DNA from: Dethiobacter sp. | Lineage (GTDB): Bacteria; Bacillota; Dethiobacteria; DTU022; UBA8154 | Assembly (NCBI GenBank): GCA_003605065.1 | Contig: QZJM01000049.1 | Location: 208-64,207, forward strand | DNA length: 64,000 bases | Reading direction: 5' to 3' | Shown here: one piece after another, positions 10,300 through 60,068 of the stretch | How the letters are laid out: each line of letters starts with the position of its first letter | Numbering within the stretch: the first letter of the stretch is position 1 | Notes under the pieces: generated by a model | Database searches by the model: none | What the model saw: the letters and a program-made list of their open reading frames with translations, nothing else | Told to the model about the DNA's origin: nothing | Translations under genes and position numbers: made by a program

Positions 10300-10612
10300 A
10301 TAAATTAAAAAAGCCTCTTGCCCAAATAAGGACGAGAGGCTTGCTTTCGCGGTGCCACCTTAATTGCCGGTAAAAATAATTAACCAGCATCTTTCTCAGG
10401 TACGGCCCAAAATTGCGTGGGCGATACCCTGAACTCTGCTAACGGTGCTCACTCCGGCAAAAACTACTAGGTAATAACCGTTCGTCATGCAATTCTTGAG
10501 TCCATTCGCTCTCTGCGCCTGGACCGGGCTCACACCTTTTCCCGGTTCTCTGGGCCTTCGCTCGAGAGTTACTAGTCTCATTCATAATTTTTTACATTAT
10601 GATGTTAGTTCT
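10300..10612 (-). promoter_or_regulatory. T-box riboswitch leader, putative Trp (UGG) specifier, with intrinsic terminator
   Basis: Minus strand reads AATTAAGGTGGCACCGCGAAAGCAAGCCTCTCGTCC...GGCAAGAGGCTTTTTT (T-box 14-mer plus terminator). Stem I carries AGAGAG-CGAA-UGG-A-CUCAAG, matching the GAA-codon-A specifier context. A second GC hairpin plus U-run lies at about 10241-10260. Confidence 0.75.
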
Positions 10613-18969: not shown

Positions 18970-19300
18970 AGATCAAAAAACTTCCATCCCATAGGGACGG
19001 AAGTTTAATCTTCACGCGGTACCACCCTGGTTAGGCACATAGTGCCCCCCTCTTATTAGAGTACGGACCAGAATTTTCCGCCCGATACCCTTAATACATA
19101 GTGCTTTTCAGCAGTGGTGTCAGGTACGGACTGAAAGCATTCCAGTCTTATACCCCCTTCCTTTTAACGGTGGAAGTTTCCGTCAAAGCCTACTAACCGT
19201 TAAGGCGTTATCGGCTTTCGGTTTGCTTCTCAGGAGTGTATTTCAGCAATTTAGGACACCGGGTCGCACCATCCCCCGGCTCTCTGAGATCCGTTTATTA
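18970..19300 (-). promoter_or_regulatory. T-box riboswitch leader (complete), putative Tyr (UAC) specifier, terminator 18974-19006
   Basis: Minus strand reads AACCAGGGTGGTACCGCGTGAAGATTAAACTTCCGTCCCTATGGGATGGAAGTTTTTT. Upstream are an F-box-like CCGTTAAAAGG and a Stem I carrying AGAGAG...GAUGGUG...GAAAUACAC (AA-UAC-A). Confidence 0.7.
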
Positions 19301-19386
19301 CCTACTTCTCTCCGTCATCGCTTTACTTAATTTTCTTGTACCGAACCGATGTTTAACCGGTAATACCAGCTTCTTCTCTACCTTTT

Positions 19387-35289: not shown

Positions 35290-35430
35290 AAATTCGGTAA
35301 ATTAGGTATCTCTATCATCTTAGACGGGGTCTTCAGCCATACGGGAAGTGACAGCCTATACTTTAACAAGGAAGGAAATTATGACTCCCTGGGAGCTTAT
35401 CAATCCATCAACAACAGGAGCCGCAGTCTA
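35290..35430 (+). pseudogene. short remnant of a GH13 alpha-amylase-family gene (region I motif)
   Basis: ORF 35233..35490 contains [29 protein letters not shown], which is the GH13 region-I LDGVFNHTG signature. No other conserved regions are present and stops flank it. Confidence 0.35.
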
Positions 35431-35719
35431 AGTCAGGAGTTTCCTTCTTTATGGAAAAGCCTCCCTGCGGCCCCGTATGGTAGTCGATAATCCTGTCATT
35501 TACATGGGGGGCAATATTTTTATCGTAAATGATAGTTACCCCATCTGTTTCCTCCAACTGATCCTGACCTTCTTGAACCGACTCATCCAGAGCCAGCGCC
35601 AAATTAGGGCCGCCTCAGCCCACACCACTGATAAATATTCGGATATAGATCTCTTCCCTATTCTCCTGCCTTAAAACCTCTTTCAATTGCTCTACCGCTG
35701 CAGTCGTAATTTTCAGCAT
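35408..35719 (-). CDS. HesB/IscA-like selenoprotein (in-frame UGA at 35617-35615 read as selenocysteine)
   Basis: Manual minus-strand translation from the ATG at 35719 gives [103 protein letters not shown]. It aligns to A-type carrier proteins (IscA: ...GGGCSGF...CGCGSSF) with the TGA exactly at the first conserved Cys. The track shows only the post-TGA half (35408..35602). Confidence 0.7.
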
Positions 35720-35773
35720 AAATACCAATCCTTTCTTCTTAATCTCATTTTGAGTTCACTGCTGTATTAATGC

Positions 35774-36985
35774 TTATAATTTACTCGCACCGTGGGCTTT
35801 TTTAAAACGCTGCTCTTCTTTTTTGCCTAACACTTTCAACAACATAGCACAGGCTGCAGTTGCCAGGGCAAAAATGGCCATTACCATAAAACCATAAACA
35901 TAGGAACCGGTTCCATCATAGGAAAGACCAACCCAAAGAGGCCCTATTAAAGCTCCTATGTTCAAACAGGTTGATAATACACCATATCCGGCTCCAACTT
36001 GTTCCGGAGGAAGTAATTTAGGTACTATGGAAAAAACAGGTGCGGGAATGAAAGCCGCCATAAGGCCGATTAAGATTGCTAATAATAAAGGGTTCAAACC
36101 CGTTCCCGTAATCAGCATCAAAAGAACAGCAAGAGCTATGCTACCCCCGGCTATAAAGATTTCTACCTTACCAATCCTGTCAGTCAGGTATCCTATCAGG
36201 GGGCTGAGAAGAAGTGACCCCAGCATAAAAAGGCTTGTTAAAAATCCCGCATAAGTAACGCCATAGCCGGCGGTTCTATAGTAATCAGGAGCAAAGGTAA
36301 GAAAAGAAATAGCGGCGGCATTGAAAGTCATCCAGGCTGCGGCCACTATCCATATAAGCTTGTTCATGTTTTTTAACGGCGCCAGGATCTCTTTAACAGT
36401 TTTTTTCTCACGTTCTTTTCTTTCCTGTAAGCCCGGATACTTTATGATAAAGAATACAAGCACCAGCGCAGAAAAAACGGAGGTAAAAATAATAGGTACC
36501 TGCCAACCCCAGTAGCTGCCGGCACGCCCAAAAACGTTAAAGGCGAATATGGTTCCTACCGGCATGGCTGTATTAAATAATCCCATGGCTGTTCCCAACT
36601 CCTGCTTTTTGAACCACCGGGATATTGCCAGCGGCGCTACAATGGCCAGGGTCATGGCCCCAATCCCGGAAATAATCCTTCCCGCCGCCAAAACGGGAAA
36701 ACCGTAAGCAAAACCGGCAAGGATGGTACCCGCTACCATTAGTAAAAAAGCTAAGATGCCTATCTTCCTGGGTCCATAAATATCGGCAAGCATTCCCCCG
36801 GGTATGGAAATAAAGATCCCTGGAAGAGCAAAAAGACCCATAAGCGCACCGGCCTGGGTATGCGAAAGCTGGAGTGCAGAGATTACCAGTCCGAGTAAAG
36901 GCGGTATTGACTGAAAAACAAGTGCAAAAGCGAGCATAGAGAAATAAATTAAAAACAGGATACTCCAACGGCGGCTGTACTCCAT
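35774..36985 (-). CDS. MFS transporter (12 TM)
   Basis: 403 aa, hydrophobic throughout. MFS loop motifs (GMLADIYGPRK; GYLTDRIGK). Confidence 0.8.
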   Translation of the reverse strand: MEYSRRWSILFLIYFSMLAFALVFQSIPPLLGLVISALQLSHTQAGALMGLFALPGIFISIPGGMLADIYGPRKIGILAFLLMVAGTILAGFAYGFPVLAAGRIISGIGAMTLAIVAPLAISRWFKKQELGTAMGLFNTAMPVGTIFAFNVFGRAGSYWGWQVPIIFTSVFSALVLVFFIIKYPGLQERKEREKKTVKEILAPLKNMNKLIWIVAAAWMTFNAAAISFLTFAPDYYRTAGYGVTYAGFLTSLFMLGSLLLSPLIGYLTDRIGKVEIFIAGGSIALAVLLMLITGTGLNPLLLAILIGLMAAFIPAPVFSIVPKLLPPEQVGAGYGVLSTCLNIGALIGPLWVGLSYDGTGSYVYGFMVMAIFALATAACAMLLKVLGKKEEQRFKKAHGASKL

Positions 36986-37231: not shown

Positions 37232-37549
37232 TCAAACTTTGTTCCTTCCGGTGTCATATATTTTTTCCGAAATTATTTTGTCCGCTCTTTTTTTATCCCC
37301 CGTATCCGCTTTTTCAATATCGATAGCAGCATCTGGACAAACCAGGGCACAAACACGACACGCGGTACACCGTTCTATCCGCTTGGCTTCAACAATGGGA
37401 GTCCCGTAAACCCCCATCTCCCTGGACCAGTCTATCACATGGGAGGGGCATTTCTCCAGGCAAAGGCCGCAGCCCTTGCAGAGATCGGGAGAAATGATAA
37501 AATTTCCTTTCGGTCCTTCCCATTTTTTTTTAGTAAAAGTTTTAGCCAA
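37232..37549 (-). CDS. 2-oxoacid:ferredoxin oxidoreductase delta subunit (2x[4Fe-4S] ferredoxin)
   Basis: 105 aa with CKGCGLCLEKCP and CTACRVCALVCP cluster motifs. Confidence 0.85.
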   Translation of the reverse strand: MAKTFTKKKWEGPKGNFIISPDLCKGCGLCLEKCPSHVIDWSREMGVYGTPIVEAKRIERCTACRVCALVCPDAAIDIEKADTGDKKRADKIISEKIYDTGRNKV

Positions 37550-37564
37550 AGACTCTCACCTCTT

Positions 37565-38257
37565 TTAAATTTTTCCGGTAGAAACCGGTCTTTTTATCAT
37601 GCGGGCCGCCGCCTCCCATCCCAGCTCCAGGGCCCGGAAATTTAAATTTTTTAAGGCGGGATCGCGCTTTAATTTATTTTCCAACCGTGTTTCCAGGGCT
37701 TTTTTAGTGCTTTCCAGCTGTACTATCTCCATAACTCCGGCCGTTGCCCCCAGGATAATAATATTGGCAACCCTGGGATGAAGCTTATTTTGAGCCATTT
37801 CACTGGCGGGCAGGCCATAAATATGTTTTACTTTTGACGTAATCTCGGGAAAGCTTTGTCTTTGATCCGTCAGCCTCCGCTCGGCAAAAGCTTCCGGGGC
37901 GATGGTATCATAGCACTGCCAGCCGATAACTTCATCGGAAACTTGTGGCGGTGCCAGCAGGGAACTGTCATATAAAATAATGCTTTCTTCATTTATATAG
38001 CCCTGCAGGCGTTCAAGGGAGCGCCCGCTCAAGGCCACGATTAAATGAGCATACTTAAACTTGGGGGAACCAATAGGCTCTTCTCCTACCTGGACAAAGG
38101 CCAGGGAAACACCACCTCTTTGTTCTATGCCAAAGTTTGGGATGTAGAGAGCTTCTTTCCCCTCTTCATAGGCCGCCTGAGCCAGGATATCAGCTGCCGC
38201 CTGTACGCCCTGGCCTCCCTCGCCTCCCATAACAATACGCTTATTACTCAGGGTCAT
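37565..38257 (-). CDS. 2-oxoacid:ferredoxin oxidoreductase gamma subunit
   Basis: 230 aa POR/KOR/VOR gamma family (MGGEGGQGVQ...). Confidence 0.85.
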   Translation of the reverse strand: MTLSNKRIVMGGEGGQGVQAAADILAQAAYEEGKEALYIPNFGIEQRGGVSLAFVQVGEEPIGSPKFKYAHLIVALSGRSLERLQGYINEESIILYDSSLLAPPQVSDEVIGWQCYDTIAPEAFAERRLTDQRQSFPEITSKVKHIYGLPASEMAQNKLHPRVANIIILGATAGVMEIVQLESTKKALETRLENKLKRDPALKNLNFRALELGWEAAARMIKRPVSTGKI

Positions 38258-39024
38258 AACCTGACGACCTCCTCCTCTGCTTTATTTTTTTTCCAGGGAG
38301 AAACCAGTTCCCCTAGCGGGTAATAATCAGTCATTTCCTTTTCCAGGTACTTCCAGGTATCGACAGCATTGGTTCTCCAGTTAGTAGGGCAGGTGGATAG
38401 AGCTTCTATCACGGAAATACCCCGATCCCGGAGTTGATTTTCCAATCCCCTTTCCAGGTAACGGGACAGGCGCTGCACCTGGGAAACTGATCCCCGGGCC
38501 ACATAGGCTCCTTCGGGAGCAAAGGAGGCAATCATCTCGGGACCACGCAGGGGAAAACCTTCCTGGTCAGGCTCCCGGCCTCCGGGGGTTGTTTCCGTTT
38601 TCTGGCCCAGCAGGCTGGTTGGAGCCATCTGCCCCCCGGTCATAGCGTAAGTGGTATTGTTTACGATTATGACCAGGATCCTCTCGTTGCGCATGGTAGC
38701 GTTTACCAAATGCTGGACACCAATAGCATAACCTCCACCGTCACCCATATAAGCAATACCCACCAGGTGGGGGCGAGCCCTTTTTGCTCCCACAATAAAG
38801 GGTACCGTCCTGCCGTGATGGGTCTGAACTGTATCCAGGTTAAAGAAATCCCAGGACAACAGGGAACATCCTATATCACAACCAAAAAGCACTCTTTCGG
38901 CTATTTTCAGGCGATCTACGGCCATGCCCAGGGCTTTTAAAACCAAACCATGGCCGCACCCAGGGCAAAACTTGTGCGGCTTTGTTTCTGTACGCCAGGA
39001 AAGGGGCATAGACTGTTCAGACAT
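38254..39024 (-). CDS. 2-oxoacid:ferredoxin oxidoreductase beta subunit (TPP-binding)
   Basis: 256 aa with CPGCGHG...GDGGGYAIG, the TPP-binding motif. Confidence 0.88.
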   Translation of the reverse strand: MSEQSMPLSWRTETKPHKFCPGCGHGLVLKALGMAVDRLKIAERVLFGCDIGCSLLSWDFFNLDTVQTHHGRTVPFIVGAKRARPHLVGIAYMGDGGGYAIGVQHLVNATMRNERILVIIVNNTTYAMTGGQMAPTSLLGQKTETTPGGREPDQEGFPLRGPEMIASFAPEGAYVARGSVSQVQRLSRYLERGLENQLRDRGISVIEALSTCPTNWRTNAVDTWKYLEKEMTDYYPLGELVSPWKKNKAEEEVVRL

Positions 39025-39224
39025 AAGTTACCACCTACCTATCCTTAAAATGCAGAAGTCGGAAGTCAGAATGCCGGTGTGCCAGAAAATATTTCTGGAA
39101 TCAATGGCCAGGGGAATGGCCGGGGGGAATGGCCGGGGGGACGTTCTTCTTCCGGCCATTTTTATCCTTCCAGTGGTGCCACTGGAACAGTGGCATGAGC
39201 GTCTATATCATCAAACTCCTTATC

Positions 39225-40391
39225 TTACAGCAGGGCTACGGAGGCGTCTTTCTCCCGTTCTCCGTTTAAAATAGCCCGGGCTTCCTGCACAACCTCCTCT
39301 GCCGTGATCCCCAGCCCGGGCCGAAAATAAGTATACATCTTAAGGCTGTGTTCCAGTTCACCACCAATAGCGATACGGATCAGTTTGGCCAGCTGACCCT
39401 GCGCTGATTCTACCACAAGAAGCCGGGAGCAGGCAGTTAAGACGTTTTTAATATCTTTGTCTGGAAAGGGACGAAGGGTAATGGGCCGGAAAAAACCAAC
39501 GGGGATATCCTTTTCCCTTAATTCCCTGACAGCAGACCGCACACTCCTACCTACAATACCATGGGCGACAACGATGAGTTCAACTCCCTCCAGAAATCCT
39601 TCCTCCTTTTCGCTTAACGAAGGAGCAGCCCGGTGAAAATCGTCGATAATAGGTTTTAATACTTCGTAGAGCTCTTCTTCCACTGAAAAAGCGTTGCGCC
39701 AGTGGGCAGGTTCCCGGTCCACTCCGGGAACGCCCTTAAGGCCCACCATGGGAAATGTGGGTTTAAGATCAATCCCTTTTTCCCGGGGATCGTAAAGAGT
39801 AACAGGCTCCCTCATCTTGGCCTGGTAACCATCTCCTAAAACCAGAGTGGGAAAACGGTACTCCCAGGCTGTGGCAAAAGCTTTAATGGTCAGGTCGTAC
39901 ATCTCCTGGTGACTGCCTGGAGAATAGACTACCCTTAATCCCTCACCGTTTCCTCCGAAAATCGTTAAGAAAACTTCCTGCTGTGAGTAAATTACAGTAG
40001 CAGTGGAAGGCCCTCCCCTCTGCTGGACAACCAGAACCATGGGTATCCGCATCATTTCCGCCATGGAGAGGGGCTCCTGGAAAAGCACCGTTCCCGGACC
40101 AGCAGTGGCCGAAAAACAGCGCGCCCCTGCCATAATGCCTCCCAAAACGGCAAACCCTGCCGAGAGTTCATCTTCAGTCTGCAGAAACCCTCGCCCGTAA
40201 CGGGGAGCCAGCCGCGACCAGTAATGCATAACTTCATTCTGCGGCGTAATAGGGTAGCCAAATAAAAACTCAGCTCCGGCGGCCAGCGCTGCCCAAACCA
40301 CTACTTCATTACCGTACATGAAGGCCCGTTTTTCTCCTTCCAGGGACCTGGTTAAAAGTTTTTCTTCCTGTGTGACAGGTTGGTTTATCAT
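39225..40391 (-). CDS. 2-oxoacid:ferredoxin oxidoreductase alpha subunit
   Basis: 388 aa POR/KOR alpha family. Confidence 0.88.
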   Translation of the reverse strand: MINQPVTQEEKLLTRSLEGEKRAFMYGNEVVVWAALAAGAEFLFGYPITPQNEVMHYWSRLAPRYGRGFLQTEDELSAGFAVLGGIMAGARCFSATAGPGTVLFQEPLSMAEMMRIPMVLVVQQRGGPSTATVIYSQQEVFLTIFGGNGEGLRVVYSPGSHQEMYDLTIKAFATAWEYRFPTLVLGDGYQAKMREPVTLYDPREKGIDLKPTFPMVGLKGVPGVDREPAHWRNAFSVEEELYEVLKPIIDDFHRAAPSLSEKEEGFLEGVELIVVAHGIVGRSVRSAVRELREKDIPVGFFRPITLRPFPDKDIKNVLTACSRLLVVESAQGQLAKLIRIAIGGELEHSLKMYTYFRPGLGITAEEVVQEARAILNGEREKDASVALL

Positions 40392-52295: not shown

Positions 52296-52431
52296 ACTAT
52301 CTCCGAATAAAGAAAGAAGAGAAAGAAATAATAAGGTAAAGGGGTGCCTGGAACAGGTGCCGGGCACTTAACTGTTTACTTATTGTTTCCTTCACTCTGT
52401 ATCGATATGCCAGATAAAAGGAGGTGTTAAA

Positions 52432-52779
52432 ATGACCATAGCACAAACATCTGTAGAAAAATACCAGAGCTGTATTGACGCTTGTAACCGGTGTATGCAG
52501 GTATGTGAAGAGTGCTTGCAGTCATGTTTGAAGGAGGAAGACGCCAAAGCCAGGGCCAGGTGTATTTCAATACTCAGGGACTGTGCCGATATTTGTTCCC
52601 TGGCCTCCCAGTTTATGGCCAGAAACAGCGAATTTTCCAGACAGCTCTGTGATTTATGCGCCACTATTTGTGATTCCTGCGCCGTTGAATGTGACAGATT
52701 CAAAGATCAACACTGCCGGCTGTGTGCCGACGAATGCCGCCGGTGTGCACAGGAATGCCGCCAGATGGCTAAAATATAA
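52432..52779 (+). CDS. cysteine-rich four-helix-bundle copper-binding protein (DUF326 family)
   Basis: 115 aa with 18 Cys arranged as repeated Cx2C/Cx3C (CIDACNRCMQVCEECLQSC ... CADECRRCAQEC). RBS AAAAGGAGGTG. Confidence 0.7.
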   Translation: MTIAQTSVEKYQSCIDACNRCMQVCEECLQSCLKEEDAKARARCISILRDCADICSLASQFMARNSEFSRQLCDLCATICDSCAVECDRFKDQHCRLCADECRRCAQECRQMAKI

Positions 52780-52791
52780 GCCGCAAGACGC

Positions 52792-52828
52792 AAAGAGAGA
52801 ATCCAACAAAACTATGATTCTCTCTTTC
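52792..52828. terminator. bidirectional terminator AAAGAGAGAATCcaacaaaactatGATTCTCTCTTT
   Basis: 12-bp perfect inverted repeat with T-rich flanks, between the convergent cysteine-rich gene and the Mrr-like gene. Confidence 0.55.
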
Positions 52829-54484: not shown

Positions 54485-56422
54485 TCAAACTGCTGCTGGG
54501 ACACCTTTTTTCAATCCGGCAAAGAATTCCTCTATCTGCTGCGGTTCCATGGCATCTATGGCACTCACCATGGAGGGGAAAAGGGGAGGGTAAAGGTCAT
54601 AAAGGTATGCGTACATTTTCTCCACCATATATTCCGTATCGTACACTTTTCCCCAAAGCCTCTGGATATGCTCCGTGGACATGAAAACGGCCTGGCAGTA
54701 ATCACGCATTAGTTCCAGCGCTTTTTTTAACTTGCTTGCCCAATCCATGCCAGCGTTGTTAACATCATAAAGCTCAACGGCTTTTTTTACGGCAATTTCC
54801 TTCCATTTAAAAACATGTTCTATCTCGCGGTACGCTGGCGACAGGTCAATACCCTTTTCCCCGGCAAGCCGCTCCATCCCGTACTGGAGATAATTTATAC
54901 GGCTGTCGATATAAATATCCAGCATCCTGACAATCCCCACGATATTCCTTTCATCCAGGTTCTCGGGTTGACGGCTAAGAATGAGACCTGCAGGATAATC
55001 TTCCATTTTTCTTAAAAGGGTTGAACACAGCAGGTAACCTTTAAGGCAGGGAAGTTTCTGCCTGCCTTCAGTCGGCCTCCATCCCCAGTTGCAGGCCCTT
55101 TTCATAATTCTTAGAAACATGATGATCTGCGTATCCGGATTTTCCTGCACCAGGTTGTAACCAGTGTCGTTAAAATGCTCGCTGTGTACAGGGATGCTAA
55201 GAGAAATGTTAAAGTTGTCAACCAGGGTATCGAATATCCCGCAAAAATACTTGCCGTTTTCCCAGAAAATATGGGGATGCTGGTATAAACCGGTTTTTTC
55301 CTTGTCATAACGTCCTACCCCCGTCACCCCGAGGGGAGGATAATGCCCGTCGGCTCTTAGAATCAACCTTATTTCCGGTGCCCAGCTAATACTGTCAAAC
55401 TCCAGTTCAGGTAAGGCTTCTATTCCTCCACTTTTCAGCACGTCATCAATATATTCATCCGGAGTAACAAAATGTATTTTAAACTTTCCTTTTGTCTCCC
55501 GTAAAATTTGTTTCCAGGCTTTTTCCATAATCTCTAGGGCAATATCGCCAAAATCCATTAACTCCAGATCCTGAATATGCACCAGCACCCCGCCGGGAGG
55601 AACGTTATGTAACTCTTTTCGCAAAACTTCTGTATAAATCTCTACCCCTTCGTCCAGGTTAATGGGAAATTTTTCCACCTCGTTATGCAGGTACTCATTA
55701 TCAAATACGGGAAAATCCCCAAGCATATACCCCTGAAATTTTACCTCTTCCCGCTTCATCCTGGTGATGGGGCGCCATATTTCCTGGGAAATAGGAAAGT
55801 TTCTCGGGAAGGCCAAAATGTTTTTCCGCTCCGTTTTAATCAGGAACGGTTTATATTTATAATCCCCTTCACCCTTTAATTTGAAAGGGACTTTTTCTTC
55901 ACTCAGGTGAGGGAAAATAATATAATCCAGGTTGGCTTTTTCAATGCCTCCCATCTTTGAGAATTTATATGAAGCCTCGGGAGCAAACAGTCCGTTGTAC
56001 TTGGGGTAAGGAACTCCCATATAGCTGTGCAGGTACTGCATATTCCACTGGATCTCCTGGGTTATCTCTTCCTCCCTGAGCAAAGAAACATGGGTGTGGT
56101 GGGCATGGCCGTAGAGGGGGTACAGCCTGCCCCTGGCATAACCCTCTTTTAACTTTTCAAAAGAGGAGGGCATAACATCCCGTATCTGGAACAAGAGTTC
56201 ATTTGTATACTCCACACACAAGGGAGCATTAATGCTCTCGGCAAATTTTATACTCAGGGAATAGATGTCCCTGCCTTCCTTCTTTCTTTTCTTTATATAA
56301 TTTTCATCCAGGATAGTCTCTTTCATGGGGTTATCATCACCAAGGTAAGAGAGAAGCATCTCCGGCAGGTCCCAGAGCAGTTCGTGGGCATGGAAAGCCA
56401 GTATTACGTAAATATCTTTCAT
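54485..56422 (-). CDS. glycoside hydrolase family 57-like protein
   Basis: 645 aa with an N-terminal AFHAHE...-type (beta/alpha)7 start and a LFAPE region resembling the GH57 nucleophile motif. Sits beside treZ/TreT-like genes. Family call is tentative. Confidence 0.4.
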   Translation of the reverse strand: MKDIYVILAFHAHELLWDLPEMLLSYLGDDNPMKETILDENYIKKRKKEGRDIYSLSIKFAESINAPLCVEYTNELLFQIRDVMPSSFEKLKEGYARGRLYPLYGHAHHTHVSLLREEEITQEIQWNMQYLHSYMGVPYPKYNGLFAPEASYKFSKMGGIEKANLDYIIFPHLSEEKVPFKLKGEGDYKYKPFLIKTERKNILAFPRNFPISQEIWRPITRMKREEVKFQGYMLGDFPVFDNEYLHNEVEKFPINLDEGVEIYTEVLRKELHNVPPGGVLVHIQDLELMDFGDIALEIMEKAWKQILRETKGKFKIHFVTPDEYIDDVLKSGGIEALPELEFDSISWAPEIRLILRADGHYPPLGVTGVGRYDKEKTGLYQHPHIFWENGKYFCGIFDTLVDNFNISLSIPVHSEHFNDTGYNLVQENPDTQIIMFLRIMKRACNWGWRPTEGRQKLPCLKGYLLCSTLLRKMEDYPAGLILSRQPENLDERNIVGIVRMLDIYIDSRINYLQYGMERLAGEKGIDLSPAYREIEHVFKWKEIAVKKAVELYDVNNAGMDWASKLKKALELMRDYCQAVFMSTEHIQRLWGKVYDTEYMVEKMYAYLYDLYPPLFPSMVSAIDAMEPQQIEEFFAGLKKGVPAAV

Positions 56423-56598: not shown

Positions 56599-58923
56599 CT
56601 AATGGAACTGTATATAGTTAACCTTTCCTGCGGCAATATCTTCGTGTAAAACCTGCCCGACCTCTTCCTTCGCCGTAAAATACAGAACCTGCCAGCCCTT
56701 GGCACAGATTTTTTGGAGCACTTCCAGCTGCCTGCGCAATCTGGGCAGATCTGCTTTAACAAAGGGATCATCGAGAATAAAAAATCCCTTCTGCCCTTTT
56801 AAGAGCTTCTCTCCGAGCGCCAGCCTCACAGAAAGATAGAGCTGGTCAAAAGCGCCGCCGGACAGCTTCACTGCAGACAGGATATGCCCATCTTTATTTT
56901 TAACCTCCACTGTTTTTACCCCGGGATTAAAATTAACTTCTTCATATAAATTACCCGTTATCTCCGCAAAGTACGCGGAGATGAGGCTGTCCCGGCCAAA
57001 CAATTCCAGAACTTTCTCTTCTTCTTCCCTCTCAATTTCTTCAAAAATGCTTATGGCCTTTAGTACATAGTCTGTACTGGTTTCAACTTCATTAATAAAT
57101 TGTTTCAGCCTGTTTTGAATAGCCTGCAAATCAACCAGGGTATTACAGTGAAAATGTTCACCTTCCAGGCTGAAAACCCCGTTTGCTTTTTGCTCAATTT
57201 CCCTCAGCTTTTGCGTAAAAGCAGCCATTTTCGCCGTTATACTATTTTTCTCCTCTTCCAGTTCCTTTTTCCTGTTTTTTAAGAATGTGCTCCGTTCTTC
57301 GTCATAATCCAGGCCTCTGCCGGCGTGTTCATAAACCTTTAGCTTTTCCAGTTCTCCACGCCAGTAAAACATGTCTTCCTCTATTTTCCCCTGACCGGCA
57401 CCAAACAAATTTTTTAAGACGGCCGCCTGTTTCTCTTTAATCCTTTCCTGCTCCTGCTTTTCCCGGAGTTTCTGGCTATATTCATCCAGGGTCAATAACC
57501 CGCTTTTAATTTTAATCTTTTCGATGATATCCTCTGATTTAGCGGCACTTTGCCCACATTTTTCCTTTTCACTTTCCCTGTTTTGTATTTCTGCCTGCAG
57601 GAAAGAAAGGCGGCTGTCCGCTTTTTTTAATTCTTCTTCTTTTCTGTAGAGATTATCTTCAAAAGCGGCCATATTTTCCAGGACTTCCCCCAGGCTGGCA
57701 CCGCCCAACTGGTACCGGGCAGAGCTAAATTTAATTTTTTCCAGTAAACCCTTAAGGCGGGCCTTTCCCCTGACATAAGAAAAATACATTAAGGCAAAGA
57801 CTGCTGCTGAAGTGAGAAAAAGCATGGACAAAACATAAAAAGCAAAAGCAGGTCTGGCGATAATTCCGGCTATGGTCACCAGCAGCAGGACTGCCGAAAT
57901 TATGCCGGCAGCAGCAAAGAACCTGCTCTTTTCCCCTTCAGCCCCCAGTTTTTCATTTGTCAGGTCATAATCCCGGAGAAGTGGTTTAATATCGTTGTCA
58001 ACTTTTTCCTTCCTGCGGCGGAGAAGATGCAGATCCCTTTCTTTTTCTTCCATGAATAGGCGGGCCTTTTTGAGCTCCTCTTTTTTACTGTTTATATTCT
58101 CTTCCATTTCCCGGCAGCGCCTTATCTCCCTGTCCCGGTCACGCAGGTTATCCCGCCATAGTTCCTCATCTGCGCTGTTAAAAATGGACAGCGTATTAAC
58201 TGTTTCCCCGGCCTCCTCCAGGTTTTCCAGGGCAGTCCGGGCTCCTTCATAGATCTTCCTCTTCCTGGCCATTTCCAGGTTTTCCAGTTCCAGCCCAATA
58301 CCTTCCAGCTCTTCGGCAATTTTTATAACGGCATCTTCCAAAAGGTCTAACTTCGCCCCGGTGCTTTCCTCCATTAAAATCTCCGTTTTTTTAACGAGAT
58401 CAGCTGCCTCCAGAAATCTTGATTTGATCTTGCCGTAACGGGCGTCATCAGACAGCAGACCCTCGCTGGAGGCCCTGGTTAATTTACCTAGTTCCATGAG
58501 CTTTTTTTTCAGAGAAGAGATTTCCTCTATCCTCAACCCTGTAAGACGATCTGTTAAGCCGGCATAAAAATCGCTCTCCCTGTCGATAGCGAGGTCGCTA
58601 TTTCTGATAATAAAAATATTGCGGTATTCCGATGGGTTTATATCCGCCATTTGGCCCGGATCTCCCTTCCCGGGCAGCTTCATTTCTTTCCCGTCTTCCC
58701 CCTGGAGCACGACATAACCTTCGGGGTTTTCCTCCACCCGGTCCAGTCCTGCAAATATTTTTGGTGTGGCACTGCGGCCCAGCAGCATTTTCAACAGCGC
58801 ATCTATGGAAAGCGACTTTCCATCCTCGTTGTGTCCGAAAAAAAGGTTAAATTCCTTAAGAACAAACCTTTCGTCCCGGGCTACGGGACCATATCGCTTC
58901 AGGCAAAATTCCTTCAGGATCAT
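56599..58923 (-). CDS. yhaN: SbcC/Rad50-like AAA ATPase with central transmembrane hairpin (YhaN-like)
   Basis: 774 aa with Walker A GHNEDGKS at the N-terminus, long coiled-coil regions, an internal hydrophobic segment (AAAGIISAVLLLVTIAGII...FLTSAAVFALMYF), and C-terminal signature/Walker B (LSGGAFDQLYLSVRLAL, FFILDDPF). Confidence 0.75.
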   Translation of the reverse strand: MILKEFCLKRYGPVARDERFVLKEFNLFFGHNEDGKSLSIDALLKMLLGRSATPKIFAGLDRVEENPEGYVVLQGEDGKEMKLPGKGDPGQMADINPSEYRNIFIIRNSDLAIDRESDFYAGLTDRLTGLRIEEISSLKKKLMELGKLTRASSEGLLSDDARYGKIKSRFLEAADLVKKTEILMEESTGAKLDLLEDAVIKIAEELEGIGLELENLEMARKRKIYEGARTALENLEEAGETVNTLSIFNSADEELWRDNLRDRDREIRRCREMEENINSKKEELKKARLFMEEKERDLHLLRRRKEKVDNDIKPLLRDYDLTNEKLGAEGEKSRFFAAAGIISAVLLLVTIAGIIARPAFAFYVLSMLFLTSAAVFALMYFSYVRGKARLKGLLEKIKFSSARYQLGGASLGEVLENMAAFEDNLYRKEEELKKADSRLSFLQAEIQNRESEKEKCGQSAAKSEDIIEKIKIKSGLLTLDEYSQKLREKQEQERIKEKQAAVLKNLFGAGQGKIEEDMFYWRGELEKLKVYEHAGRGLDYDEERSTFLKNRKKELEEEKNSITAKMAAFTQKLREIEQKANGVFSLEGEHFHCNTLVDLQAIQNRLKQFINEVETSTDYVLKAISIFEEIEREEEEKVLELFGRDSLISAYFAEITGNLYEEVNFNPGVKTVEVKNKDGHILSAVKLSGGAFDQLYLSVRLALGEKLLKGQKGFFILDDPFVKADLPRLRRQLEVLQKICAKGWQVLYFTAKEEVGQVLHEDIAAGKVNYIQFH

Positions 58924-59984
58924 TTCCTTACCCCCATCATGGCCTGAATAGCCAGAGCAAGTATCTGTCTTTTTGTTACCTCAGGATGATCAGCCTGTCC
59001 CAGAACAGAGGAAAATTTTTTAAATAAACTATTTTCCAGGATAATACTGATATCCCTGAACTCGTAATTTTCTTCCACGCAATTTATTCCGCCAATTTTT
59101 TTCTTTATACCGGCCACAAGTTCCGTTTCACTTACCCCAAGCTCGGCACTGTTTATATAACCTTTCACTGTAAGAACAACTCTGGCCTGGGAATGGAGGG
59201 ACATTAAATGCTTTTCAATTATTTCCAGGGGGTTTTGATGCTTAAAAGGTTCCAGTTCGATTACCACTTCCGCAAAATGAGAGGTATTTAGAGTACGCTC
59301 TTCCGGCGGACTGCCCAGCCGGAAGATATTAACTTTGCGCAGGCCCGTTTCCCTCCTGGTTACAGAAACGGGAGAACCGGGATAAATAAAGTAACCGCCG
59401 TTATCCAGCAACCGCACGTCAAAATTGCGGTGAAAATGCCCCGCCAGGATATAATGAAAAGGCAGGTCTTTAAAATAGGAGAGTTTAAAAGGCATGTACC
59501 TCCCTGTGCCCTCATCACCCAGCTCACCCCTGAAATAGAAGGCGTCCAGCAGTTCGCCATGATATACCAAAATATTGCTTTTATCAGGAGAGAGCCTGTC
59601 TTTCAACATCCTGAGCCTGGCCTGGATTTCTGCCTCCCCGGCGTGCTCAAAAGACATCCCCCAGATTCTTACTTTTTCGTTTTCAAAAGGAGTATGCAGG
59701 TTATTTAAAATAACGGTATCATCCCCGAAATACATTCCGCCGCCAAATGAATCTTTATCGTGGTTCCCGGGAAGAATGATAATTTTAAAACTGTTACCGG
59801 AAAATATTTTTCGCAGGTACGGCCTTAAATTTTCCGCATTAATCCCCTCATCAAAGAGATCGCCGCTGATCACAAAAATGTCTATGCCCTCTTTACCGGC
59901 CAGATCTACAAGCTCCTGCAGCGCCATCCATCTTTCATCAGCATATTCCCTCAGATGAATATCAGCCGTGTGCAGTATTTTCAT
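58920..59984 (-). CDS. yhaO: SbcD/Mre11-like metallophosphoesterase (YhaO-like)
   Basis: The track ORF runs to 60041. The probable start is the ATG at 59984 (MKILHTADIHL) with RBS GGGAGCGGG. Calcineurin-like motifs DIHL, GDLFD, GNHD, GHFH. Confidence 0.75.
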   Translation of the reverse strand: MKILHTADIHLREYADERWMALQELVDLAGKEGIDIFVISGDLFDEGINAENLRPYLRKIFSGNSFKIIILPGNHDKDSFGGGMYFGDDTVILNNLHTPFENEKVRIWGMSFEHAGEAEIQARLRMLKDRLSPDKSNILVYHGELLDAFYFRGELGDEGTGRYMPFKLSYFKDLPFHYILAGHFHRNFDVRLLDNGGYFIYPGSPVSVTRRETGLRKVNIFRLGSPPEERTLNTSHFAEVVIELEPFKHQNPLEIIEKHLMSLHSQARVVLTVKGYINSAELGVSETELVAGIKKKIGGINCVEENYEFRDISIILENSLFKKFSSVLGQADHPEVTKRQILALAIQAMMGVRK

Positions 59985-60068
59985 TTTCGCCCGCTCCCGA
60001 TTTTTAAAGGTGAGTTTGTACTTATATGCTAATTTTAGCAAAATAAACCAGGAAAAACAAGTGCCATA

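Follow-up and report, generated by a model that had tools for sequence, protein, structure and literature searches.

The minus strand of the window, as we call the whole 64-kb stretch of DNA that was analysed, contains a reading frame that starts with an ATG at position 35719, is interrupted by an in-frame TGA at 35617–35615 and ends with a second TGA at 35410–35408. An earlier note on this DNA had described the single frame, and the sequence bears it out, apart from the codon count: the internal UGA is preceded by 34 codons rather than 33, and what follows it is 68 sense codons and a stop rather than 69 codons. When the frame is read through, this gives a 103-residue product ending in DLDCGSCC. 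A Shine-Dalgarno-like AAAGGA (35729–35734, minus strand) can be read from the sequence 9 nt upstream of the ATG. The ATG at 35719 is favored over an upstream TTG at 35728, because related proteins begin at the equivalent M-L-K/T-V-T. The frame, the homology that extends across the UGA and the same architecture in relatives point to one complete selenoprotein gene at 35408–35719. The UGA at 35615–35617 (minus strand) is the predicted selenocysteine (Sec) codon for residue 35, in the motif G-V-G-U-G-G-P.

In the annotation of the source contig (JGI metagenome 3300007354, contig Ga0104761_1000144, 73.8 kb), the locus appears as a 34-aa and a 64-aa ORF, not as one gene, just as the earlier note had expected of ORF callers. 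The separate 34-aa ORF corresponds to the N-terminal 34 codons at 35618–35719 (minus strand). A mechanical ORF listing of the region gives ORFs of 37 and 64 aa. The locus is also present on contig JAGVBD010000041.1 of the NCBI metagenome-assembled genome GCA_020059905.1. The UGA at 35408–35410 (minus strand) is the true stop, with no SECIS-type hairpin after it in the coding frame. A single mRNA would carry the Sec-UGA and the stop-UGA 204 nt apart, with nothing but the hairpin context to distinguish them.

With U written as C, the product matches the Pfam domain PF01521 Fe-S_biosyn (HesB/IscA domain) over residues 2–94 with a score of 33.9 bits, above the gathering threshold of 26.3. The best NCBIfam match is NF038090 IscA_HesB_Se (E 4e-19), which aligns residues 1–102 with positions 1–99 of the 101 in the profile. 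Its score of 68.7 bits lies below the curated cut-off of 85, although the match is full-length and the family is the best one. The near relatives that were tested against this model, L022 and L028, also stay below the cut-off at 66.6–68.8 bits, and a Tepidibacillus relative with the same DNA signature is the only tested one above it, at 93.2 bits. The score for TIGR00049 is 51.8 bits, below the cut-off of 58.8. For TIGR01911, the match covers profile positions 6–78 of 92 and scores 36.7 bits, below the curated cut-off of 66.35. The earlier note had suggested a comparison with the TIGRFAM models; the U-x-G-P motif and a UGA aligned with Cys are both found, and the curated score is not reached.

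The solved structures of Aquifex IscA (1nwb, E 2e-13) and HI1723 (2apn, E 4e-9) both align over residues 2–100. Both structures have the Cys of their G-G-C-S-G ligand motif opposite the UGA and their C-terminal C-G opposite C99-G100. This confirms the position of the UGA at the first ligand Cys of IscA, as put forward in the earlier note, and, for the C-terminal CGSCC, the match at C99. The Sec motif U-x-G-P is present as U-G-G-P (in G-V-G-U-G-G-P-N). The C-terminal Cys cluster C99-G-S-C102-C103 (35411–35425, minus strand) presumably provides the second and third cluster ligands. The cysteines that follow C99 are at +3 and +4 and not at +2, with the first ligand position taken by the predicted Sec. 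Close relatives all retain C99, C102 and C103. In the profile comparison, neither half alone gives a complete IscA/HesB domain, and the view that the two halves form one A-type or HesB-type protein stands on the Pfam and 1nwb matches.

With the full-length protein as the query, a word-indexed search for homologs gave no match other than the 64-aa piece itself, and a genome search with the single protein found no related loci. When the 64-aa piece served as the query, an exhaustive HMMER search found 19 representatives, mostly of 50–66 aa and cut at the same place. Two representatives of 105 aa in this search read G-I-G-W-S-G-P and G-L-G-W-G-G-P. The W in these two proteins (P0003 and P0018) is TGA rendered as Trp by the gene caller, because their DNA (L002 and L003, respectively) has TGA at this codon. 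Three more relatives are split into calls of 33–35 aa and 64–65 aa, and their N-terminal halves are conserved when the DNA is read through. At the Sec site, the best 120 full-length database relatives show W in 54 cases, the motif G-x-G-C-[GSA]-G-P in 44 and variant motifs (with Cys in those displayed) in 22; U is recorded there in none of the 120, so that this protein collection systematically misrepresents the Sec forms.

To survey the codon itself, we used a degenerate DNA pattern that is neutral with respect to the codon, I-R-[IV]-[FY]-[IV]-x-G-x-G-(TGA/TGC/TGT)-[GS]-G-P, on one genome per GTDB species. The pattern leaves out TGG, and fewer than one chance match is expected by our own estimate from its information content. 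It yielded 107 stretches with 113 genes, every one a recognizable family member. The codon at the site in these species-representative genomes is TGA in 85 genes, TGC in 23 and TGT in 5. This alternation of TGA with TGC and TGT at codon 35 is a Sec/Cys signature. The 28 Cys-coding members of the subfamily also settle the register in favor of the earlier note, as they carry TGC or TGT precisely at the UGA codon. That the signal exceeds chance is clear from the family match over the full length and from the 85 of 113 related genes in which this codon is TGA. Among the nearest 30 relatives, which are at most 67% identical to the window protein, the codon is TGA in all 30.

The carriers are mostly anaerobic Bacillota, with a few others: they include metagenome-assembled genomes (MAGs) labelled Syntrophomonadaceae, Dethiobacteria, Tepidibacillus, Alkaliphilus, Clostridium, Caloramator, Desulforudis and Fusibacter. 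Cys forms with the signature G-x-G-C-S-G-P also occur in Methanomassiliicoccales archaeal MAGs (L029, L052 and L069), and the subfamily is therefore not restricted to bacteria.

The substitution pattern was examined on both sides of the UGA. For three close relatives that align without gaps (L040, L022 and L108), dN/dS is 0.18–0.23 over the 34 codons before the UGA and 0.14–0.25 over 45 codons after it. Values for pairs with indels were dropped as alignment artefacts (L059, L028, L099, L009 and L043 downstream). A dN/dS of about 0.2 on both sides indicates that both parts evolve as translated protein, and the N-terminal 34 codons are kept in relatives.

In genomes of the Fusibacter/Acidaminobacteraceae type, a Cys-form (TGC) and a Sec-form (TGA) paralog lie in tandem, about 450–600 bp apart (L032, 4486–5031; L051, 4936–5452; L061, 2613–3254; L082, 6893–7407; also L098 and L113). 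Pairs of selenium-dependent and selenium-independent isoforms are known in methanogens, and by analogy the tandem paralogs may be such an isoform pair.

The predicted SECIS core hairpin of the window gene is located at 35577–35597 (minus strand), within codons for L-A-L-D-E-S-V. It has an 8-bp stem, GCUGGCUC/GAGUCGGU, and a UGGAU loop at 35585–35589. The loop begins 25 nt past the UGA and has a G at its second position, followed by another G. The hairpin that had been claimed about 25 nt past the UGA, GGCUC-UGGAU-GAGUC, does exist and is the top of this stem. Folding of the region, also proposed in the earlier note, gave −10.4 kcal/mol for the GCUGGCUC-UGGAU-GAGUCGGU hairpin, with a z-score of −3.78 and none of 200 shuffles as stable. 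In this gene, four more pairs below a 1-nt bulge extend the lower stem to 35572–35603 (minus strand; −12.6 kcal/mol, z −2.56), an extension that is not conserved across the family. Longer stretches of 48–66 nt around the hairpin fold no better than shuffles (z −0.5 to −1.4 for 58–66 nt), and significant folding is confined to the hairpin itself. The hairpin has no match to a SECIS family in Rfam, either at gathering or at E values up to 10.

The bSECIS model describes a loop of 3–9 nt, an upper stem of 4–16 bp and a minimum free energy (MFE) of −7.5 kcal/mol or lower (PMC13188914). It also calls for a G within the first two nucleotides of the loop, with G or U as the usual next base, and for a distance of 16–37 nt between the UGA and the loop (PMC13188914). 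The window hairpin, with its 5-nt loop, 8 bp, 25 nt and −10.4 kcal/mol, lies within every one of these limits.

To assess conservation of the hairpin, the 51 nt that start at the TGA were aligned without gaps for 87 distinct TGA genes and compared with 27 Cys genes. In the TGA genes, the stem columns 22–28/34–40 are paired in 86.7% of cells, versus 24–50% when the partners are slid by 1–3 columns. The covariation score is 0.321, versus at most 0.108 for the slid partners. Five of the seven stem pairs vary on both sides, and none of 500 shuffles reaches the observed pairing or covariation. Over 85 distinct rows, pair 25–37 is G-U in 29, G-C in 29 and A-U in 18, and pair 24–38 is G-C in 61, U-A in 12 and A-U in 8. 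Clean double changes are seen in single sequences, such as GCC...GGG in L101 and GUU...AAC in L091. Pairs beyond 23–39 are formed in only 36–77% of relatives.

Several synonymous positions are close to fixed in the TGA genes. Of the 87 genes, 85 have T as the last base of codon 9 and 78 have CTG for Leu at codon 10; Glu at codon 12 is encoded by GAG in 75 and by GAA in one. Different codons stand at these positions in the 27 Cys genes. A hairpin with bSECIS geometry at −5 kcal/mol or lower is found in 77 of the 87 TGA genes versus none of the 27 Cys genes. RNAalifold predicted no pairs when the 87 TGA sequences were pooled, because two hairpin registers are mixed among them. The same stem, with a 6-bp consensus, is predicted for the 78 CUG-type genes and a shifted one for the seven GGUCUAGA-type genes; with ribosum scoring the stem is recovered on all 87.

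A different hairpin is found in the Sec paralogs of the Fusibacter/Acidaminobacteraceae type. Within the first 40 nt after the TGA (L032, L051, L057, L061, L082, L098 and L113), they have a stem of 9 bp, UUGGUCUA(G)/(C)UAGACCAA, whose GGUC loop lies 21 nt past the UGA. In this clade the hairpin is retained though its sequence and register differ.

The machinery for Sec decoding was sought on the same contig and in related genomes. There are no tRNA genes in the 64-kb window and no sel genes among the 20 window ORFs scanned against NCBIfam. Neither selA, selB, selC nor selD was found in the window or in the rest of the 73.8-kb contig, where the remainder contains germination genes, citrate synthase and a permease; a SelD motif is absent from all loci scanned. 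The missing sel genes say little, because about 74 kb is a small part of a genome.

In four sister-clade MAGs, a nearly identical tRNA-Sec with a UCA anticodon is located 2–4 kb from the orthologous TGA gene (L015, 7275–7368; L019, 1628–1721; L030, 1135–1228; L053, 3902–3995), and a tRNA-Sec near a HesB-like TGA gene was also found in L130, L134 and L137. The presence of tRNA-Sec beside these sister-clade genes indicates that carriers of the HesB-like family decode Sec. The linkage occurs in one sub-lineage with the signature GVG-U-GGPRYGLTL, and the gene order in L019 is selC, a MATE-type transporter, an ArsR-type regulator and the HesB-like gene. When a 30-nt selC probe from the sister-clade tRNA-Sec was run against metagenomes, it matched 36 contigs, none of them from the source sample. 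Because only 3 of the 36 have a HesB-like gene nearby, the selC linkage characterizes a single sub-lineage rather than the whole family. L118 (4237 and 5123) and L137 (2523 and 7490) each have the 30-nt tRNA-Sec core twice on one contig. This suggests, from the sequence matches, duplicated selC genes, which are unusual for bacteria.

Of the 43 long window ORFs, 12 end in TGA, as does this gene itself. TGA is an ordinary stop there, and UGA is therefore not reassigned. Other candidates for UGA read-through in the window turned out to be only frame-overlap artefacts, and the translation of an intergenic candidate at 52392–52811 is not protein-like.

The gene upstream of the HesB-like gene encodes an MFS transporter (35774–36985), and the 54-nt gap between the two has no promoter or terminator match on the strand of the HesB-like gene. 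Upstream of the transporter gene is an operon for a four-subunit 2-oxoacid:ferredoxin oxidoreductase (OFOR; 37232–40391, minus strand). In L009 (1942–4957) the HesB-like gene directly follows the OFOR operon, whose subunits are 72–86% identical to those of the window, and the short contig L008 (4–641) retains the junction between OFOR gamma/delta and the HesB-like gene, at 63–77% identity. The window differs from L009 in the insertion of the MFS transporter gene between the operon and the HesB-like gene. A NamZ-like gene precedes the OFOR operon in both the window and L009. The OFOR linkage is limited to close relatives, because other relatives have unrelated neighbors. The window has no isc or suf operon context.

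Elsewhere in the window there are two T-box leaders (Rfam RF00230; 108 and 115 bits) at 10325–10594 and 18990–19327, both on the minus strand. One (10325–10594) is directly upstream of minus-strand ORFs that reach to 10169 and include trpD. The other (18990–19327) is directly upstream of the shikimate genes for DAHP synthase, aroA and aroC, which reach to 18887. The T-boxes together with GerxC, SleB and CodY identify the source as a spore-forming Firmicute. Two ORFs on the minus strand, of 645 aa (54485–56422) and 774 aa (56599–58923), have no NCBIfam or recorded Pfam match. They are situated downstream of a gene for an SbcD-like metallophosphatase (58920–60041), and the 774-aa ORF may be SbcC-like. 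The contig annotation places an Mrr-type restriction gene and a NYN-domain gene near these two ORFs.

Taken as a whole, the evidence makes it very probable that 35408–35719 on the minus strand is a single gene in which UGA35 is decoded as Sec. The readings that compete with this one each account for part of the data. In one of them, the lineage formerly decoded this UGA as Sec but the source organism no longer has the Sec machinery, which would leave a truncated pseudogene with the 34-aa peptide as its only product. This is consistent with the lack of sel genes and tRNA-Sec in the 73.8 kb of source contig and of a selC match in the source sample, and bacteria often lose selenoproteins and the Sec trait (PMC1794560). 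Such a relic, however, would hardly be expected to keep both halves intact, with no further stops or frameshifts, a perfect 8-bp SECIS hairpin and a dN/dS of about 0.2 on both sides against several relatives. The 74-kb fragment is moreover such a small part of the genome that the absence of sel genes from it is little informative, and we regard the loss of decoding as very unlikely.

It is more improbable still that the UGA is read without selenium, as Cys or Trp, by a near-cognate or suppressor tRNA or in a reassigned code. The W at the site in 54 of the best 120 full-length relatives and in the two 105-aa calls would agree with this, but where the DNA was read (L002 and L003), the W is a TGA that is untranslatable under table 11 and comes from gene calling. 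TGA also ends 12 of the 43 long window ORFs plus this gene, and across the family it alternates with TGC and TGT and never with TGG (which the pattern excluded). The 44 motif-matching Cys-form proteins give no hint that Trp is tolerated, and the conserved hairpin with its loop G-G at 25 nt is a SelB-type signal. We give hardly any credence to two small genes, or to termination followed by reinitiation at TTG 35602 (34 aa plus 64 aa). JGI and other pipelines call the locus in this way, yet neither piece is a complete IscA/HesB domain, the homology spans the UGA, the conserved ligand position is the UGA itself, and Cys-form homologs are single uninterrupted ORFs. One base separates TGA from a Cys codon, so that an error of sequencing or assembly could have turned TGC or TGT into TGA. 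The identical truncated product is found on three contigs, however, which makes a single read error unlikely. TGA also occupies the same codon in 85 related species, and the SECIS-specific synonymous codons are present; the chance of such an error is close to nil.

Under the reading as a single Sec-decoding gene, the hairpin at 35577–35597, with its loop G-G 25 nt past the UGA, would act as a bacterial SECIS. As in bacterial Sec insertion generally, it would recruit SelB-GTP-Sec-tRNA(Sec) to the ribosome, and Sec would be placed at codon 35. The terminal UGA at 35410–35408, which has no SECIS, would be read by RF2 and lead to termination. The source organism, an uncultured spore-forming Firmicute, is probably a selenocysteine user, and we infer Sec decoding there from the gene sequence and its relatives. 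By homology to A-type proteins, Sec35 would replace the first of three cluster or iron ligands, and C99 together with C102/C103 would supply the others. The selenolate may alter ligand exchange or redox behavior. Its sequence makes it most likely that the protein binds iron or an Fe-S cluster, or passes it on, or else has a part in a related redox step; in each case a selenolate would replace the usual thiolate.

A more specific role can be considered for the C-x-x-C clade, in which the gene follows the OFOR alpha-beta-gamma-delta operon in the window and L009 and adjoins OFOR gamma/delta on the short L008 contig. The protein could be a dedicated selenium-dependent factor for maturation or repair of OFOR, in which Sec ligates the transferred Fe-S cluster or iron, but we consider this speculative and rather unlikely. 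If true, a function would for the first time be defined for a HesB-like selenoprotein, and the trafficking of a selenolate-ligated cluster would have an example. What the finding changes more directly is the annotation, as two meaningless small ORFs are replaced by what is very probably one selenoprotein. This HesB-like branch is nearly invisible in large collections of predicted proteins, where its members are either cut short or given a false Trp at the Sec site. The branch lies under the cut-offs of both NCBIfam models meant for it, and similar genes will therefore keep being missed. The knowledge of selenoproteins and of Fe-S assembly is unchanged by the finding.

A-type carriers have three conserved ligand cysteines, C-Xn-C-X-C. 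The window protein resembles IscA, SufA and ErpA in its fold, as judged by sequence, and in the conserved ligand positions at residue 35 and the C-terminal C-G. It differs from them in having a predicted Sec rather than Cys as the first ligand, followed by G-G-P and not S-G-F, and in ending with C-x-x-C-C rather than C-G-C. Its gene is also outside an isc or suf operon, and its score is below the TIGR00049 cut-off.

HesB-like selenoproteins have been described before. Eleven bacterial members, Clostridia included, were counted in 2006 (PMC1794560), and a 2026 review lists the family with the motif UxGP and the model TIGR01911 and gives no demonstrated function for any member (PMC13188914). The earlier note was thus right to regard the locus as an annotation rescue and not as a new family (PMC1794560, PMC13188914). 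The window protein shares with the described members a small HesB/IscA domain, a single Sec at the conserved first Cys within UxGP, an intragenic bacterial SECIS, the occurrence in anaerobes including Clostridia and the existence of Cys homologs. In contrast to the family as modelled by TIGR01911, it scores 36.7 versus 66.35, and its C-G-S-C-C end is outside the aligned stretch. NF038090 matches the whole protein over nearly its whole profile and is the best-scoring family, but the window protein and its tested nearest relatives score below 85, so that the clade is not named by this model. The window protein belongs to the known HesB-like selenoprotein family as a divergent member that had gone unannotated, and it does not reach the curated HMM thresholds. 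The hairpin differs from the Escherichia coli fdhF-type SECIS and the bSECIS consensus in having no curated Rfam match and in the shifted 9-bp stem of one sub-clade. It agrees with them in its position just past the UGA within the ORF, its small loop with G followed by G/U, the location of the loop within 16–37 nt and an MFE of −7.5 kcal/mol or lower.
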